Virus record (IMG/VR): IMGVR_UViG_3300010149_000159
Coordinates: 1 to 25,242 of that record
Length of the DNA: 25,242 nt
From: a virus
Taxonomy: Duplodnaviria; Caudoviricetes
Strand: one strand, 5' to 3'
The position numbers were made by a program, and so were the translations under genes. Position 1 is the first letter of the stretch. Each line of letters begins with the position of its first letter. Below, piece after piece: positions 1-24,006 of this stretch. Below the pieces are notes generated by a model. That model saw only the letters and a list, made by a program, of their open reading frames with translations, had not been told where the DNA came from and searched no databases.

Positions 1-830
1 CGGTTTATATCAAAGGCCCAATCTTTTAGTGGCCTATCCAGCTTATTATTTCTTTCCTGTGCAGCGTCTAAAATGAATGTTTCAACATCAGATTTTTTAG
101 CGCAATTAATTAGGTTAGAAATATCTTTAGGAAAACAAGTTCCACCAAAACCAAAATTCCCATTACAAGGAACCTTTGTATGGCTGGATGTTATTCTATC
201 ATCTATTAAAATACCATTTAAGGCTTCATTCCATCCGATGTGTTTTCCTTCAGCGATTTTGTAAAGCTCATTGAACAAGCTTACTTTGGTTGCTAAAACA
301 CTGTTTCGAGCTAACTTTATAAATTCAGATGTATTTGATTGAGTTAGAAAAACATTATCACTTTTAATTGCATTAGCTTCTTTAGCATTTGTAAGCGCAG
401 CTTTAATTGACGAATAAATTTCTAAATTGGTGTTATCAATTCCCAATACCCATGTATCTGTTTCGATAAAATCTACAGAAGCATTTGCTTCAGTTAGAAA
501 TTCAGGAAAATGATTTACGCCTAATTCCTTGCAAAAGCCAACTGGAGTTGTGGAGCGTATAAATGTTTTAGCTTTTTCTTCAGTTGAAAAATCAGCGATA
601 GCTTGTGAGATAAAATCTGTATGGCAATCACCCTCTTTATTCATTGGAGTTGGCAAACAAATAAATATTAAATCACAAGACCTAATATCATCCATTGTGC
701 AATTATGAGGATGCGATTTGTAATCTACACGATCATAGATAAAAACAGAATTTTTCTTGCAGGACAAGCCAGACGTAGCGTTTCCAACAAAACCATTTCC
801 CACTATTCCTAGCTTCAGTGCATTTCCCAT
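1..830 (-). CDS. ugd: UDP-glucose/GDP-mannose 6-dehydrogenase family protein (3' end runs off the window; missing from the ORF track)
   Basis: Manual translation from ATG at 830: MGNALKLGIVGNGFVGNA (Rossmann GxGxVG), FICLPTP, IRSTTPVG, FPEFLTE, EFIKLARN, and catalytic GFGGTCFPKD. The frame stays open to position 3. Confidence 0.92.
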   Translation of the reverse strand, partial: MGNALKLGIVGNGFVGNATSGLSCKKNSVFIYDRVDYKSHPHNCTMDDIRSCDLIFICLPTPMNKEGDCHTDFISQAIADFSTEEKAKTFIRSTTPVGFCKELGVNHFPEFLTEANASVDFIETDTWVLGIDNTNLEIYSSIKAALTNAKEANAIKSDNVFLTQSNTSEFIKLARNSVLATKVSLFNELYKIAEGKHIGWNEALNGILIDDRITSSHTKVPCNGNFGFGGTCFPKDISNLINCAKKSDVETFILDAAQERNNKLDRPLKDWAFDIN

Positions 831-837
831 TGTTTGG

Positions 838-874
838 ACTTTAATTTGGAGGAGCAAAATGTAAACAAAAAAAA
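838..874 (-). promoter_or_regulatory. Repeated sigma70-like promoter, copy 1 (TTTACA-16-TAAAGT), ATG 7 nt after the -10
   Basis: Minus strand reads TTTTTTTTGTTTACA ttttgctcctccaaat TAAAGT ccaaaca ATG. Same upstream element as four other copies. Confidence 0.65.
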
Positions 875-1898: not shown

Positions 1899-1906
1899 TG
1901 TATTAG

Positions 1907-1939
1907 TTAGTTAGTGTTTTTATTGATGCCGTTAAGCAT
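1907..1939 (-). other. Conserved 5' leader starting ATGCTTAACGGCA; here a 10-codon uORF (MLNGINKNTN*)
   Basis: The 13-mer is identical at 1927-1939, 2244-2256 and 3450-3462. This copy stops at TAA 1907-1909, 8 nt before the ATG at 1898. Confidence 0.6.
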
Positions 1940-1945
1940 GAGATT

Positions 1946-1986
1946 AATTTAAAATAAGTTCTTACTCTGTAAACAAAAAAGATAGA
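1946..1986 (-). promoter_or_regulatory. Repeated sigma70-like promoter, copy 2 (TTTACA-16-TAAATT)
   Basis: The 19-mer TCTATCTTTTTTGTTTACA is identical at 1968-1986, 2286-2304 and 3492-3510. The -10-like hexamer is at 1946-1951, 6 nt before the conserved leader. Confidence 0.8.
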
Positions 1987-1987
1987 T

Positions 1988-2010
1988 AAAAAGGGGAGGT
2001 TTCCCTCCCC
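1988..2010 (-). terminator. Intrinsic terminator
   Basis: GGGGAGG-GAAA-CCTCCCC followed by TTTTT on the minus strand. Confidence 0.88.
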
Positions 2011-2019
2011 CGATTTTAT

Positions 2020-2256
2020 TTAGGCATTTGCTTTATGGTTATTGAAAACAAATACCAACATTTTAACACGATTCCTTTTATTTTTTAGAACGTGTTTAGT
2101 TGCTTTAATATTTTCATAGTAAGGAATTAAGCCAGCCTCAAATTTATCAACAACTTTTTGCATTTCAGAAATTTGAAATAATAGGCTGTCGATTTCTTTT
2201 TTGTATTGTTCAGGTGTCATTTCGTTTTTTAGTTCAGTGTTAGTGCCGTTAAGCAT
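2020..2256 (-). CDS. Small hypothetical coiled-coil protein (true start may be the ATG at 2220, MTPEQ)
   Basis: 78 aa ORF flanked by its own promoter and terminator. The first 12 codons coincide with the conserved leader. Confidence 0.75.
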   Translation of the reverse strand: MLNGTNTELKNEMTPEQYKKEIDSLLFQISEMQKVVDKFEAGLIPYYENIKATKHVLKNKRNRVKMLVFVFNNHKANA

Positions 2257-2262
2257 AATAGG

Positions 2263-2304
2263 AATATAATCACAAACCGTTAGCGTGTAAACAAAAAAGA
2301 TAGA
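2263..2304 (-). promoter_or_regulatory. Repeated sigma70-like promoter, copy 3 (TTTACA-17-TATATT)
   Basis: -35 at 2286-2291, -10 at 2263-2268, 6 nt to ATGCTTAACGGCA. Confidence 0.85.
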
Positions 2305-2309
2305 TTTTT

Positions 2310-2699
2310 TTAAGAAGAATATTTTTCCTCTTCAAGTTCAGTTTGCTTTATGCAGAATTCTCTTTGTTCCTCTTTTGAAAGCCAAAAGAATAATCGTGTA
2401 TGCGTTTCCTTTAATTCATCTACAAGCAATTCCATCTCTGGAGAATAATTATCATGAACAAGCATATCATCTACTATTTTGCTCCTTTTACTTTCTAATT
2501 CAATGAAGCTTGGCTGATCTAAAACCTCATGGATTTTTTTATTAACAGCATTGATTAGTGATTTATCAACAGCGTGTCTTTTACCAGTTCCCATTTTTGT
2601 GAAAAATATTTCTACCTCTTCAAAGATTTTTTCTCTTAAAAGCCTGTCAGATTTTTCTTGTAGCTTTTCTCTGTATATTGTTTGTTTTTTCATCTTCAT
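2310..2699 (-). CDS. Hypothetical protein
   Basis: 129 aa charged, helical-looking ORF, co-oriented with its neighbours and filling the gap. Confidence 0.75.
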   Translation of the reverse strand: MKMKKQTIYREKLQEKSDRLLREKIFEEVEIFFTKMGTGKRHAVDKSLINAVNKKIHEVLDQPSFIELESKRSKIVDDMLVHDNYSPEMELLVDELKETHTRLFFWLSKEEQREFCIKQTELEEEKYSS

Positions 2700-2719
2700 T
2701 AGTTAGGTTAGTTTTTTGG

Positions 2720-2737
2720 GGGGAGGTTTCCCTCCCC
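2720..2737. repeat. Hairpin identical to the terminator stem at 1993-2010 but lacking a minus-strand U-tract
   Basis: ggggaggtttccctcccc occurs at both sites. Here the minus strand continues CCAAAAAAC. Confidence 0.85.
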
Positions 2738-2751
2738 GCAGTTTTTATCAG

Positions 2752-3123
2752 TTAGAGTTTTAGGCGGCGTTCGCGTGTTGCTTCCTTGTTTTGCACTTCT
2801 TCAAACGTAGCGTGATAAGTATCAGGGAACGGATGGCTTTGCATATGCTTGTCGTACTCCTTCCAAAGCTCGTCATCAATGTGATCGCGGAGGTTGTGTA
2901 TAGCGGAGACCTGAGAACTGAGGCTGTATTCCCTTGGCTCGTAGGAATCTTCAGGTGTGCAGTTTGAAATATCCTTTTGAAGTTTTTCTATTTCAACGCA
3001 AATGTCTTGTTGGAGGCGATGCGGCATATTTTTATTTTCTTCTTTCAACAAGCTGTTTAAAAGTGAATCGCTCATCGCTTGACGTAGCCAGTTAAGTTGT
3101 TCGTATGTGATTTCTATTTTCAT
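2752..3123 (-). CDS. Hypothetical protein
   Basis: 123 aa ORF preceded by the CTAACACTGAAC leader motif. Confidence 0.75.
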   Translation of the reverse strand: MKIEITYEQLNWLRQAMSDSLLNSLLKEENKNMPHRLQQDICVEIEKLQKDISNCTPEDSYEPREYSLSSQVSAIHNLRDHIDDELWKEYDKHMQSHPFPDTYHATFEEVQNKEATRERRLKL

Positions 3124-3162
3124 TTTAGTTTTTAGGTTCAGTGTTAGTTTTTTAATTATTTA

Positions 3163-3462
3163 TTAGGCGATATAAAATTCTTCTGGAAGAAGGAATTCGG
3201 TGACACTGATTTCAATGTTTTTGAAACCCTTTTTGGAGAACAGTTCCATCGCATCTTGGCGAACAATTTCTTCGTTCTCCCCTTTGGCTACGAATTGACC
3301 CTCTAGCCCATCTGCCTTGTATACAATCTCGAAGGTTGCAGCTTTAGGATTAAGGAAAGTTGTTCCGTTATTCTGTATTGTGCTTGAGTTGTAAGTGAAT
3401 ATTTCGTTGGTTGCGGTCATTGTCAGTTTTTTTTGTTCAGTGTTATTAGTGCCGTTAAGCAT
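3163..3462 (-). CDS. Hypothetical protein (true start may be the ATG at 3420, MTATNE)
   Basis: 99 aa ORF directly behind promoter copy 4. The N-terminal MLNGTN coincides with the conserved leader. Confidence 0.75.
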   Translation of the reverse strand: MLNGTNNTEQKKLTMTATNEIFTYNSSTIQNNGTTFLNPKAATFEIVYKADGLEGQFVAKGENEEIVRQDAMELFSKKGFKNIEISVTEFLLPEEFYIA

Positions 3463-3468
3463 AGATAG

Positions 3469-3510
3469 AATCTATACCTTATCGGCTAGGCTGTAAACAA
3501 AAAAGATAGA
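3469..3510 (-). promoter_or_regulatory. Repeated sigma70-like promoter, copy 4 (TTTACA-17-TAGATT)
   Basis: -35 at 3492-3497, -10 at 3469-3474, 6 nt to ATGCTTAACGGCA. Confidence 0.85.
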
Positions 3511-3528
3511 AAAAATGAAAAAAAAATT

Positions 3529-3557
3529 TTGACAGATTTGGAGTCTGAATTTAGATT
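3529..3557 (+). promoter_or_regulatory. Sigma70-like promoter TTGACA-17-TAGATT with upstream A-tracts
   Basis: Perfect TTGACA at 3529-3534, 17 nt spacer, TAGATT at 3552-3557, and A-rich UP-like sequence at 3498-3526. Confidence 0.85.
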
Positions 3558-3563
3558 CTAACC

Positions 3564-3630
3564 ACATCTTGGGTTAGATGTTAGTTATTAGTTATCAGTG
3601 TTAGGGGGGAGCGAGAAATCGCTCCCCTTT
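3564..3630 (+). ncRNA. Putative trans-acting small RNA (~70 nt) antisense to early-gene leaders
   Basis: Lies between the promoter and a terminator, with no plausible coding ORF. 5' hairpin ACATCT-TGGGTT-AGATGT (3564-3581). The unstructured core TAGTTATTAGTTATCAGTGTTAG (3582-3604) is complementary to six minus-strand leaders. Confidence 0.75.
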
Positions 3631-3636
3631 AGTTTT
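3606..3636 (+). terminator. Intrinsic terminator of the putative sRNA
   Basis: GGGGAGCGA-GAAA-TCGCTCCCC followed by TTTAGTTTT on the plus strand. There is no U-tract on the minus side. Confidence 0.85.
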
Positions 3637-3750
3637 CAAAAGGGCATATAAACATATTCGGGAAAAAAGAAAACGCCTTACAGGCGATTCTCAGGGCAAG
3701 CAATTTCAGTGTTTTTTCATGTTTTCACTGATTTAAAGAAAATTGTATAC

Positions 3751-3987
3751 TCATGGGAATTTATAGTGCTGAATTGGGTAAAATCCTCTAGGTGTATTGA
3801 TTTTAAATTTACGAGTTTCCAATTTATCATCTGCTGATAATTCCCTGCAAATTCTTCCTGCATGAGAATATGATACATCTTTTATTTTTGCTAAATCTCT
3901 AACTGTGAACCAGCCTTCTGGGACTTTCTCCGATTCATTAATAGATAAAAGTTTTTCTGCTATTTCTCTTGCTGTTTTTTTATCCAT
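3751..3987 (-). CDS. Small (winged) helix-turn-helix protein
   Basis: Start reassigned to the ATG at 3987, which overlaps the upstream stop (TAATG). FTVRDLAKIKDVSYSHAGRICREL is HTH-like. Confidence 0.65.
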   Translation of the reverse strand: MDKKTAREIAEKLLSINESEKVPEGWFTVRDLAKIKDVSYSHAGRICRELSADDKLETRKFKINTPRGFYPIQHYKFP

Positions 3988-19243: not shown

Positions 19244-19570
19244 TTAGTTTGAGTAACACAGATCAAGAATTAATTTTTCACCATTTTCGGTGAATCCGAT
19301 GCAATCGCCATCGGCCCAAACTAATCCTTTTTTAACCAAAGAACTTACACAGCCAGATAAGCTCTTGCGATTTTCAAAAGAATTGATGATTTCATTTAGG
19401 TCATCAGTATAAACAGGAGTATGGTCAACAGAACCATCCTTGAGAAGCTTGGGTTGTTTTCCATTAGGCTGATATTCATTTAAGGCGATTCCCTTTATGG
19501 TGATTTGTTCCATCTCGGTGAGGTCGGTTAGGTTTTGGATTTGGTTTGTCATGTCAGTGTTATTAATCAT
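19244..19570 (-). CDS. Winged-helix DNA-binding protein in a moron-like cassette (start uncertain: 19570, 19552 or 19513)
   Basis: SLSGCVSSLVKKGLVWADGDCIGFTENG is a typical recognition helix plus wing. The gene has its own promoter and terminator. Confidence 0.7.
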   Translation of the reverse strand: MINNTDMTNQIQNLTDLTEMEQITIKGIALNEYQPNGKQPKLLKDGSVDHTPVYTDDLNEIINSFENRKSLSGCVSSLVKKGLVWADGDCIGFTENGEKLILDLCYSN

Positions 19571-19576
19571 GAGTAG

Positions 19577-19612
19577 ATACTAACCACTCTCGCTTACCTG
19601 TAAACAAAAAAA
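19577..19612 (-). promoter_or_regulatory. Repeated sigma70-like promoter, copy 5 (TTTACA-16-TAGTAT)
   Basis: TTTTTTTGTTTACA at 19599-19612, -10 at 19577-19582, 6 nt to ATG; same geometry as copies 2-4. Confidence 0.8.
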
Positions 19613-21356: not shown

Positions 21357-23129
21357 TTAGTCCCAAATACTTGGTTCAGTTTCAGTTTTCTTTTTAGAAG
21401 CTTTTTTCACTTCTTTCTTTTTCCTTCTTATAAGCCCTGCACCTAAACCAAAAATATGAGCTAAACAAAGAATATAAGTTTCACAATCCCAAAAGTGATC
21501 CTGTTTGTGAGGTGCTACTACCCACTGTAGCTTACTTTGTCCCTTCCTGTTTACTTCTTCCCTGTAATCAGTTGAAAGGATTTGCTTTATATATTCAGAA
21601 TCTAAATTTTTATATAGAAACCAATCTAATGTTTGGCCTGACCTTTTTTTAAGCATTTCTTGCTGCCAAACTTCCTTATTAATGTTTATCAAATTGATTC
21701 TACGCTTACCTCTTCTTTGGTCATGATAGAAAGGATCAAGTTGCGAGATTTTATAAGAAGTGGTCATATTATCTATACCTTTTGCTCCAAACCAAAAGGG
21801 CATAGACGCATAGATTTCTTGGTACATTTCTTGAGTTCTATAACCTGTATCTACTATTCCTTGAGTGCATTTATATGCTTTTGCTAATTCATTTAATTCA
21901 TCAAAATTAAATGCGATTCCATTTTCTATTAAGTATGATTTTCCATCAGAATCAAACCCACGGATCACATAGAAATAATTAGCACGTTGAACATCAACTG
22001 AAATAAATCTAAATTCTCCCTTTAAATCTCCTTTTTCATAATCAGATTCTAATTCTTTAATTTTCTTAATATCTGAAGCTGTATTTTCAAATTCTCTGTA
22101 AGGTTCAGCAAGCCAACCATTATAGAAAGCCATTTCTGACTCTACGTTTTTTTTAGATTTAAGATATTCAATAGCTATTCTTCCAAAGGTAATCTGTGGA
22201 GAATAAAAGGAATTGAGATGATATGATCTGTTAGAAGATTCTGCTTTTGAATTGCCAGCAACCCATTCTCCTTTCCTGATAGAATGATATTTGTCTAAAT
22301 CATTTAATTCTGCCCCGCATTCTTCACATACATAAAAGGTGCTTGATTTTACTAAATCAAAATCAACACCTTCTTCAGTGACAGCATTTTCATCCCATTT
22401 AAGATTTAACTTATCTTCCTTATTAAACAGCCTATAAAAAAATTTGTTTTCGCAATGAGGGCAAGGAACATAAAAACGCCTTCTATCTCCATCTTGATAT
22501 TCAGACCAAATTCCTGACAATTCCTTTACAGGAGTAGATGATTGAAGAATTTTATAATTTCTTCTACCTTTAATTCGGTCTAAACATTCTTTTCGCGTAA
22601 ATTCATCTATAACATCAATCTCATCTAAAACTAAAACGGAAACAGGAAAAGACCTAACATTAGCTGATGATCCTGCTCCAACAAGATTCATTGTGCATTT
22701 TGTGAACTCTTGTTTTTGAATAGTAAATTTATCAGAATCAAAATTGCCTGTTTTATCTCTTGGAATATGATTTGAAATTATTTTTGATTCTTTGCAAAAA
22801 GGCATCCAACGATCATAGCTAAAACTTTTACATAATAATTGATTTGGGAAAACCCACAAAATAGGTTGTGGTTTCTGGTCAATTACATATCCAAGCATAA
22901 TATAGAAGCTTGTCGTTTTAGAAGTTTGCGATCCCCAGCAAAGAGAAATTTTATTGATACGAGGGTCACGCATATTTTCTAAAATTTCTTCTACATAGGG
23001 ATAATGTTCTGTGCTATATAAACCTGATTGCTCAGTTACTCTTTCGCTTAGGAAAACAGATTTTTCAGCCCATTCTTTTACAGAATTAGCTCCACTAGGA
23101 ATTAATAAGCTTCTAGCGTAATCAATCAT
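21357..23129 (-). CDS. terL: Terminase large subunit, lambda GpA family
   Basis: Walker A GSQTSKT, Walker B VLVLDEID, SSTP, GDRRRFYVPCPHC, CEEC, SYHLNSFYSP and nuclease-region SVDVQ, VDTGY and DHFWDC. Confidence 0.96.
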   Translation of the reverse strand: MIDYARSLLIPSGANSVKEWAEKSVFLSERVTEQSGLYSTEHYPYVEEILENMRDPRINKISLCWGSQTSKTTSFYIMLGYVIDQKPQPILWVFPNQLLCKSFSYDRWMPFCKESKIISNHIPRDKTGNFDSDKFTIQKQEFTKCTMNLVGAGSSANVRSFPVSVLVLDEIDVIDEFTRKECLDRIKGRRNYKILQSSTPVKELSGIWSEYQDGDRRRFYVPCPHCENKFFYRLFNKEDKLNLKWDENAVTEEGVDFDLVKSSTFYVCEECGAELNDLDKYHSIRKGEWVAGNSKAESSNRSYHLNSFYSPQITFGRIAIEYLKSKKNVESEMAFYNGWLAEPYREFENTASDIKKIKELESDYEKGDLKGEFRFISVDVQRANYFYVIRGFDSDGKSYLIENGIAFNFDELNELAKAYKCTQGIVDTGYRTQEMYQEIYASMPFWFGAKGIDNMTTSYKISQLDPFYHDQRRGKRRINLININKEVWQQEMLKKRSGQTLDWFLYKNLDSEYIKQILSTDYREEVNRKGQSKLQWVVAPHKQDHFWDCETYILCLAHIFGLGAGLIRRKKKEVKKASKKKTETEPSIWD

Positions 23130-24006
23130 CCTTTTTCTTCACTTCATCAAACCACTTTTTAAGAGTAGGTGATTTAACTTCTGAGATTTCCTTTAACTCC
23201 ATTCCAAATTCATTTTTTTGTTTCAATTTATTTTTATCGAAATCCTTTTTGAAAATCAATCTGGTATCAAATTTTCTCCAATTATCTCTTACTTTATGCT
23301 GCGGCCTTTTAAATTTTCTTTTTGTTTCTGTAACAAGAGGCCAAACACGCTCTAATGACCTCGACATTTTTATACGGCCATCACCTTTATAAAGAACATC
23401 GCTGTTGCCGCCCTTCATGGTCATTGTTCTCATTTTCTGAGTATAAAAAGCTCTGAATAAAGCTGTGCATTGTTTTTTAGCTAAAACTTGTAAGCATAAA
23501 TCTGTATCTTCATTATATCTACCTCTCCACCTTACATCTAAATCATTTTTAATAAGCATAAAAGAATAGACTCTTGAATTTAGAACAAATGGCTTATCCA
23601 TATTTCCTACACAAAAACATTCATAATCTAATCCTGTTATAGCTAAATTTTCATACCTATCAGAAAATTCTTCAACAGATAAAAAAGCAAATTTAGAATT
23701 GCAGGGAATTCTTTTGCCAAGATTCCACCTGCCTACACCGCGCATATTATCATCTAAAATCCAATGCTTTTCATGGCCATTTTTTATAGAATTTTCCCAG
23801 CACCAATTTCTTGCAGGTATAGAGCCTTTGCCTAAATTACTAAAAGGCAAAATTTCTAATCTTTCTTCTCCATATTTTTCAGCATATAAGATTTTTTCCT
23901 GTGGTTCTACCACTATCTTAAAATCTACTTTATCCCTTAAAAGAAAATTGGCTGTAAAACAGCAATCATGCCTACCTTTTGAAATCACATAGATGGGATA
24001 TTTCAT
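23122..24006 (-). CDS. TAGT/GREB1-like glycosyltransferase (putative DNA base glycosyltransferase)
   Basis: YPIYVISKGR, VVEPQE, PARNW, HWILDDN, WRGRYNEDTDL and MKGGN motifs. Confidence 0.8.
   Translation of the reverse strand: MKYPIYVISKGRHDCCFTANFLLRDKVDFKIVVEPQEKILYAEKYGEERLEILPFSNLGKGSIPARNWCWENSIKNGHEKHWILDDNMRGVGRWNLGKRIPCNSKFAFLSVEEFSDRYENLAITGLDYECFCVGNMDKPFVLNSRVYSFMLIKNDLDVRWRGRYNEDTDLCLQVLAKKQCTALFRAFYTQKMRTMTMKGGNSDVLYKGDGRIKMSRSLERVWPLVTETKRKFKRPQHKVRDNWRKFDTRLIFKKDFDKNKLKQKNEFGMELKEISEVKSPTLKKWFDEVKKKDD

Follow-up and report, generated by a model that had tools for sequence, protein, structure and literature searches.

What does a phage make from a short promoter-to-terminator unit that lies on the strand opposite to its early genes? 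The question is raised by positions 3529–3636, plus strand, of a fragment of an uncultured tailed phage (IMG/VR record IMGVR_UViG_3300010149_000159, 25,242 nt, hereafter the window). An earlier note on this DNA had proposed a small RNA (sRNA) antisense to the start regions of six early genes. Our analysis makes it fairly probable, on sequence grounds, that the unit encodes a trans-acting antisense RNA of ~70 nt which would pair with a short tag lying no more than about 30 nt from the start codon in most promoter-proximal early genes, and would lower their translation together; it is probably a c4-like multi-target antisense RNA. The window was supplemented with G001, a 32-kb record of the same phage (2 differences from the window in 4,593 nt of overlap), which contributes an extra 9.5 kb of early and replication genes that lay outside the DNA seen by the author of the earlier note, for a total of 34.8 kb. 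Genes with the prefix x (x22768, x23007, x26470) have their starts in this extension.

The motifs named in the earlier note (TTGACA, TAGATT, the core at 3582–3604 and all tag matches) were found exactly where it had placed them (Table 1), and its hairpin-seed-terminator layout was reproduced by folding of positions 3564–3636, which gave a 6-bp hairpin, an unpaired core and a GAAA-loop terminator at −28.4 kcal/mol, a value equalled by none of 200 shuffles. The GNRA loop and the T tail are present on the plus strand only, so that the orientation of the terminator is that of the plus strand. The UGGGUU loop of the 5′ hairpin is a possible second seed. As in trans-encoded sRNAs, a predicted promoter and intrinsic terminator of the unit's own enclose a short non-coding stretch, and several mRNAs contain, close to the start codon, a complement of its short accessible seed. 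The same strand offers only an 8-codon open reading frame (ORF), from 3578, which was rejected as too short or not conserved, and a 31-codon minus-strand ORF from 3568 was rejected because it shrinks to 4 codons in L113, a locus of a related phage. A search of Rfam gave no gathering-level match in the window, in line with the earlier note, which had recognised no described family.

Nine phage promoters were found by pattern; eight of them trained the promoter model and one, at 865, was left out. The site at 3529 scored 23.9, the top of 756 sites and above all eight training promoters, with the −35 matrix softened with TTGACA in a manner that favours this site; the best site outside the family scored 13.1. 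It is the sole promoter of the phage's early family type on the non-coding strand; the earlier note had seen here the only evident plus-strand unit. Its discriminator is identical to that of the promoter at G001 25095 and is of the early-promoter type. The RNA promoter lacks the spacer motif common to all eight early promoters (the motif was defined on those eight) and thus could escape early-promoter regulation. This motif, a candidate operator or activator site, occupies the first 7 nt of the spacer in the promoters at 19604, 3497, 2291 and 1973 and at G001 22733, 24468, 25095 and 26435; GC-rich relatives of the phage carry a near-palindrome at its position.

Table 1. Coordinates of the candidate RNA unit, the repeated early promoters and the tag sites in the window.
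Feature	Position	Strand	Basis or remark
Predicted sigma70-type promoter, TTGACA-17-TAGATT plus discriminator CTAACC	3529..3563	+	TTGACA 3529–3534, TAGATT 3552–3557; promoter scoring
5′ hairpin, 6 bp, loop UGGGUU at 3570–3575	3564..3581	+	fold; loop kept in L113
Single-stranded U/G-rich core, seed UCAGUGUUAG, complementary to early-start tag	3582..3604	+	motif check, target scores
Intrinsic-terminator-like hairpin, GAAA loop, T-rich tail	3606..3636	+ only	fold, tail polarity
Repeated early promoter, back-to-back with RNA promoter; ATG at predicted +1 (3462)	3462..3497	−	promoter scoring
Repeated early promoter; ATG at predicted +1 (2256)	2256..2291	−	promoter scoring
Repeated early promoter; +1 ATG opens 10-codon upstream ORF (uORF)	1939..1973	−	promoter scoring
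Repeated early promoter; ATG at predicted +1 (19570)	19570..19604	−	promoter scoring
Tag in cassette 3163–3462: codons 6–9 from +1 ATG 3462, or 16 nt before ATG 3420	3437..3450 (3437–3445/3442–3450)	−	rank 8/58
Tag in non-coding leader of ORF 2752–3123	3138..3147	−	rank 1/58
Weaker core match over ATG 2699 plus 9-nt hairpin-loop match just upstream	2698..2711 (core match 2698–2705)	−	rank 12/58
Tag in cassette 2020–2256: codons 5–8 from +1 ATG 2256, or 13 nt before ATG 2220	2234..2243	−	rank 2/58
Imperfect match in leader of DUF932 gene (912–1898)	1901..1918	−	rank 5/58
Tag in isolated early cassette 19244–19570, codons 3–6 from +1 ATG	19554..19562	−	rank 9/58

Complementarity between the core and early gene starts

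Early genes were defined by their position downstream of the repeated promoters, and pairing was scored both as a contiguous helix (stacking values of Turner 2004) and as duplex plus opening energy, which takes in accessibility; unconstrained RNAduplex on long stretches gave loose, uninformative duplexes and was dropped. The recurrence of the core at gene starts proved to be above chance. TAACACTGA occurs nine times on the coding strand of the 34.8 kb, against 0.23–0.29 expected, and once on the other strand, the nine copies comprising the unit itself, six gene starts and two other places (15707 and G001 26529); the exact 9-mer is enriched ~30-fold in the phage's own genome. AACACTGA, with a strand bias of 10 to 1, was found at 6 of 57 starts in this phage and at none in five other genomes. 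At the six named starts the mean contiguous helix was −14.9 kcal/mol, a value that 3 of 300 dinucleotide-shuffled cores reached, as compared with −8.2 kcal/mol and 264 of 300 at 40 other starts. The core also fitted its own genome best (z −2.5, versus −1.2 to +1.2 in seven other genomes).

When accessibility was included, the six named genes ranked 1, 2, 5, 8, 9 and 12 among 58 starts, four of the five promoter-proximal genes of the unseen 9.5 kb ranked 3, 4, 6 and 7, and the top ten were all early-region genes. By contiguous helix the matches at 1898 and 2699 are the weakest of the six (−11.3 and −12.2 kcal/mol). The five promoter-proximal unseen genes had a mean of −13.6 kcal/mol, a value matched in 5 of 300 shuffles of the core and in 0 of 300 when the targets were shuffled instead. 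Position was the criterion for this subset, but the per-gene scores were already visible when it was picked, and the p value of 5/300 is generous. A weaker second signal came from the hairpin-loop region, with 5 of 500 shuffles as good when dinucleotides were kept and 49 of 500 when mononucleotides were. The motif AAYCYAA, defined after the data had been seen, is present at 5 of the 11 proximal starts and at 2 of the 40 others.

The early promoters bear on where these tags lie with respect to the ribosome. An ATG falls exactly at the predicted +1 in seven of the eight, six times out of the seven in frame with the main ORF, and at G001 22768 and 24503 it is the sole ATG nearby; the promoter-plus-ATG design was also seen in GC-rich relatives. 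Targets 2256, 3462 and 19570 probably start at the AUG at +1, i.e. are leaderless, and the tag would then lie in codons 3–9. Since their +1 ATGs are in frame, translation may not begin only or mainly at the downstream ATGs 2220, 3420 and 19552, although these may be used as well. The distances which the earlier note gave to these ATGs were right, but its placing of the tag in leaders holds only in part, the tag often being inside the first codons of probably leaderless mRNAs. A homologue search to settle the start of the ORF at 19570 returned only the ORF itself. Likewise, Shine-Dalgarno (SD)-like words are absent from all three leadered targets, as had been said, yet they are also absent from 31 of 40 other starts, and their absence is not distinctive.

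The mechanism that we envisage would begin with transcription of the RNA by the host polymerase from the start of infection, such that a stable RNA of ~70 nt would build up and act as a delayed brake. The UGGGUU loop would make the first contact with a target; pairing of the core would then block initiation on the leadered starts 3123, 1898 and 2699, and in codons 1–9 of the probably leaderless mRNAs 2256, 3462 and 19570, possibly with mRNA decay or polar termination as the next step. Repression of translation by pairing within the first five codons is possible (PMC9486967).

Several further observations concern these starts. The uORF (window 1907–1939, minus strand) has 10 codons and ends 8 nt before the DUF932 start, a possible case of translational coupling. 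A promoter +1 ATG is also the start of a UDP-glucose dehydrogenase gene (window 830–865, minus strand), whose codons 4–6 contain a 7-nt match to the seed (rank 15 of 58). The cassette at 19244–19570, situated between epimerase and head-tail genes, has weak similarity to a MotA-like regulator (E 0.0056), and its spot is occupied by different cassettes in relatives. At G001 23434–23445 (L011 5435–5446), where ORF 23007–23444 has its stop codon and just before a terminator, 11 nt of the seed recur in sense orientation; this copy is complementary to the start tag of its own gene, with pairing predicted in the folded mRNA, and could be a 3′-end-derived second RNA or a 5′-3′ clamp. Larger phages with related DUF932 genes (L013–L018) have many promoters with an ATG at or near +1, and one of them (L015) has a U/G-rich triple repeat ahead of a strong terminator.

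Relatives and look-alike units

The window encodes a GpA-type terminase, a lambda-type portal, a tape measure protein and glycosyltransferases. The phage is of marine origin, as all 24 sequencing runs listed for it were of marine, seawater or estuary DNA; RNA data holding the phage were not among them. Terminase identity to cultured phages is only about 25–27%, and two GTDB scans found no prophage relative. Among clusters of the neighbouring phosphoesterase, one (~70% identical) has a member labelled Verrucomicrobia subdivision 3 and another a member labelled Rhizobiaceae; SD sequences are scarce in some Verrucomicrobia (PMC10783764), and Verrucomicrobia as host is a weak lead only. No annotated integrase, repressor or antirepressor family was found among 55 proteins (34 + 21, covering all but ~3.7 kb of a 38.5-kb contig), and most targets had no family. 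No lysogeny module was seen in these proteins either, which makes a timer in lytic growth as plausible as immunity.

The RNA is unchanged in contigs from two runs, which is uninformative because the neighbouring coding DNA differs at only ~8 of 450 sites. In related strains, early cassettes within window 1967–3449 have been deleted or swapped at promoter, terminator and tag repeats, for example by a junction of 3138 to 3439 at the tag; this interval is a recombining cassette array in which recombination spreads and shuffles cassette modules. A diverged orthologue of the unit was found in L113, which has a 99% identical phosphoesterase, a different inserted gene and alignable flanks. It is syntenic and stands back-to-back with the first early promoter. 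The promoter of the L113 unit reads TTGCGT-16-TATTCT; its hairpin has 9 bp and an identical UGGGUU loop, its core is related and its terminator differs. Reading by eye indicated that both stems are kept via paired insertions or deletions and substitutions, and no opposite-strand ORF is kept. The L113 contig ends at the first early start, so that its own targets lie off the contig. Pattern scans of viral-contig DNA for the unit, the promoter-plus-ATG repeat and the loop-core pattern returned this phage only, 21 of the 22 loop-core matches having been rejected as chance.

It is worth adding that the end of a small ORF at 3717–3878 (window 3717–3760, minus strand) matches the 3′ end of a 244-amino-acid gene at L113 866–1600, labelled methyltransferase-like from sequence reading. 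The ORF looks like a remnant of such a lost gene; a scan with the L113 protein found no relative.

A detector scan of 250 partly redundant loci (3.0 Mb) returned 88 rows; in 22 of these a strong terminator is combined with a TTGAC, TTGCG or TTGCA −35 element. Nine of the 22 were dropped as the reverse strand of real gene starts, L095 because it lies over an open frame and L196 for want of a −10 element, leaving 11 with the present unit included. Similar units occur in three other phage groups, at syntenic sites: all 5 loci whose DNA extends upstream of one conserved gene have the unit, as do all 13 loci in which a second gene is at least 69% identical (about five distinct versions). Folded one by one, the look-alikes give a 5′ hairpin (missing in L208), a U/G-rich core and a terminator. 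UGG(G)UU is present in 11 of 12, and several have a perfect match of 10–13 nt to start codons in the same genome. L105 and L208 have opposite-strand ORFs of 102 and 83 codons, of which that of L105 is not kept in syntenic relatives. Alignment-based covariation (a pair count on two sequences, and RNAalifold on six, with no compensatory pair) is neither shown nor excluded, since MAFFT misaligned the diverged RNAs, and Rfam gave no gathering-level match in 11 loci.

These units may belong to an undescribed, widespread class of phage “anti-leader” RNAs of ~70–85 nt, each built from a 5′ hairpin whose loop is UGG(G)UU, a U/G-rich seed and a terminator, in phages whose hosts are SD-poor. Such RNAs would be protein-free master repressors, and mobile cassettes would join their regulon via a start-codon tag, also on leaderless mRNAs, amounting to an RNA-only early-gene timer or immunity system. 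We put this forward tentatively and would sooner bet against it than for it. A second conserved unit of ~105 nt, running from promoter to terminator and not U/G-rich, was observed in L063 (1171), L071 (1162) and L105 (1748), all on the minus strand and convergent with the anti-leader-like unit.

Weighing the evidence

A number of observations weigh against an antisense RNA directed at the phage's own early starts. The 11 unseen early genes taken together had a mean of −10.4 kcal/mol with 39 of 300 core shuffles as good, which is not significant, and x22768, which lacks a site, formed no duplex by the accessibility score, nor did four of the six distal early genes. The duplexes are short (9–11 contiguous bp), equal helices exist at non-start sites (e.g. 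−18.6 and −17.8 kcal/mol), and targets 2256, 3462 and x26470 are near-copies of one another. As the tag repeats are recombination points, recombination alone could have spread the tag among cassettes. In an estuary contig the 3437 tag has lost 1 nt, and the RNA-bearing contig of the same run, possibly from a different phage, is unchanged. In L113 half of the seed has changed and TCAGT alone survives; scored on the starts of the present phage, the L113 core did no better than shuffles (39 of 300 as good). The unit was not found in GC-rich relatives with 57% terminase identity (DNA of G002, G003 and G005 scanned; the syntenic site in L119–L123 and L127), from which it follows that it is not essential to the cassette design. 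Own-genome specificity is clear only for this phage; in six others it was weak (z −0.1 to −2.1, from 40 and 12 shuffles) and often bettered by a foreign genome; the z value of G048 is inflated by a self-overlapping ORF. The proposal of one RNA for a dispersed early regulon stands in part: sRNA anatomy, preferential complementarity, four of five unseen proximal genes and the structure kept in a relative speak for it, but with x22768 and five of the six distal early genes having no good site, the RNA is not a whole-regulon switch.

Two alternatives appear about equally unlikely. The unit could encode a real but generic anti-leader RNA, its main targets being mRNAs of competing related phages (superinfection exclusion) or of the host, whose starts are likewise A/C-rich and non-SD. 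The frequent fit of look-alike RNAs to foreign genomes would agree with this, and so would the match of the conserved loop to the word AACCC in 4 of the 7 A/C-rich leaders listed for GC-rich relatives, and the early-class promoter, through which the RNA would be made while early genes are needed; the core of this unit, however, is specific to its own genome, where its 9-mer is enriched. Alternatively, the unit might be a leftover or an insulator: a hairpin-plus-leader module read on its reverse strand, or a convergent promoter-terminator pair by which the early promoter is protected against read-through. The tag repeats would then reflect cassette recombination only. A module at 2698–2747 is similar in look, nine strong detector matches were indeed reverse strands of real gene starts, related strains have cassette deletions joined at tag and promoter repeats, and GC-rich relatives manage without the unit. 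What counts against a leftover is a promoter with a proper −10 element and discriminator, both missing from the false detector matches, the retention of both stems and the loop in the diverged L113 orthologue, and the near loss there of the sole opposite-strand ORF.

Less probable still is an RNA that pairs at the same sites but acts by another route, either through premature transcription termination, as does the CI RNA of P4 (PMC4825925), or through stabilising or activating mRNA. Most tags do lie in the first 2–30 nt of predicted primary transcripts, but the strong sites at 3123 and x23007 are at internal starts far from promoters and still at the start codon, and the targets are predicted to be mostly unstructured (a small gap between duplex and net energy), which leaves little to relieve. 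We give the least credence, and very little, to the tag as a DNA operator for a phage protein, placed in early cassettes and, inverted, in the RNA unit. A non-palindromic 9–10-mer is repeated shortly downstream of several promoters, as an operator might be; the tag nevertheless follows start codons and not promoters (3123, x23007), is biased to one strand as described for AACACTGA, and has in the promoter-spacer motif a better operator candidate beside it.

Comparison with known phage RNAs

If an antisense RNA directed at early starts is indeed made, a single RNA would serve about ten dispersed, exchangeable early cassettes via a shared tag, constituting a protein-free switch-off of the early programme, and would extend sRNA control to leaderless phage mRNAs. 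The seed and tag are short and defined, which renders the idea directly testable with reporters. In the literature covered, phage antisense regulators address a single mRNA or operon, as do c4, CI and OOP, or act mostly on RNAs of the host, as does PreS, and no description was found of a phage RNA that addresses many of its own early starts; most subscription papers, and the supplements of PMC10690425 with 10,006 candidate RNA models, lay outside this scope.

The closest likeness is to c4 of P1/P7 (Rfam C4, RF01695; it has a table entry in PMC2864571), a phage RNA that pairs around the ribosome-binding site of a phage mRNA and blocks its translation through seeds in exposed regions (PMC12197685). 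Whereas c4 controls the ant antirepressor mRNA in the immunity region, about ten dispersed early starts carry the tag here, several of them probably leaderless. RF01695 gave no gathering-level match in the window, and C4 was not among the 10 weak matches up to E 10 on 3450–3750. The CI RNA of P4 is likewise a small phage RNA with more than one complementary site which shuts down lytic genes (PMC4825925). It is, however, processed from the leader of the very operon it controls and terminates transcription at the same-strand flanking sites seqA and seqC, whereas the present unit stands alone on the opposite strand, with its own promoter and terminator and with targets 0.1–16 kb away. PreS of lambda and VpdS of VP882 are likewise short RNAs that run from promoter to terminator and reach many targets through a shared seed (10.1101/2024.10.31.621285; PMC12197685), but they depend on Hfq, have largely host RNA targets and promote lysis; the best predicted targets of this unit are the early starts of its own phage. 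The unit thus resembles c4 more than it does P4 CI or PreS, yet it does not qualify as a member of any of these systems.
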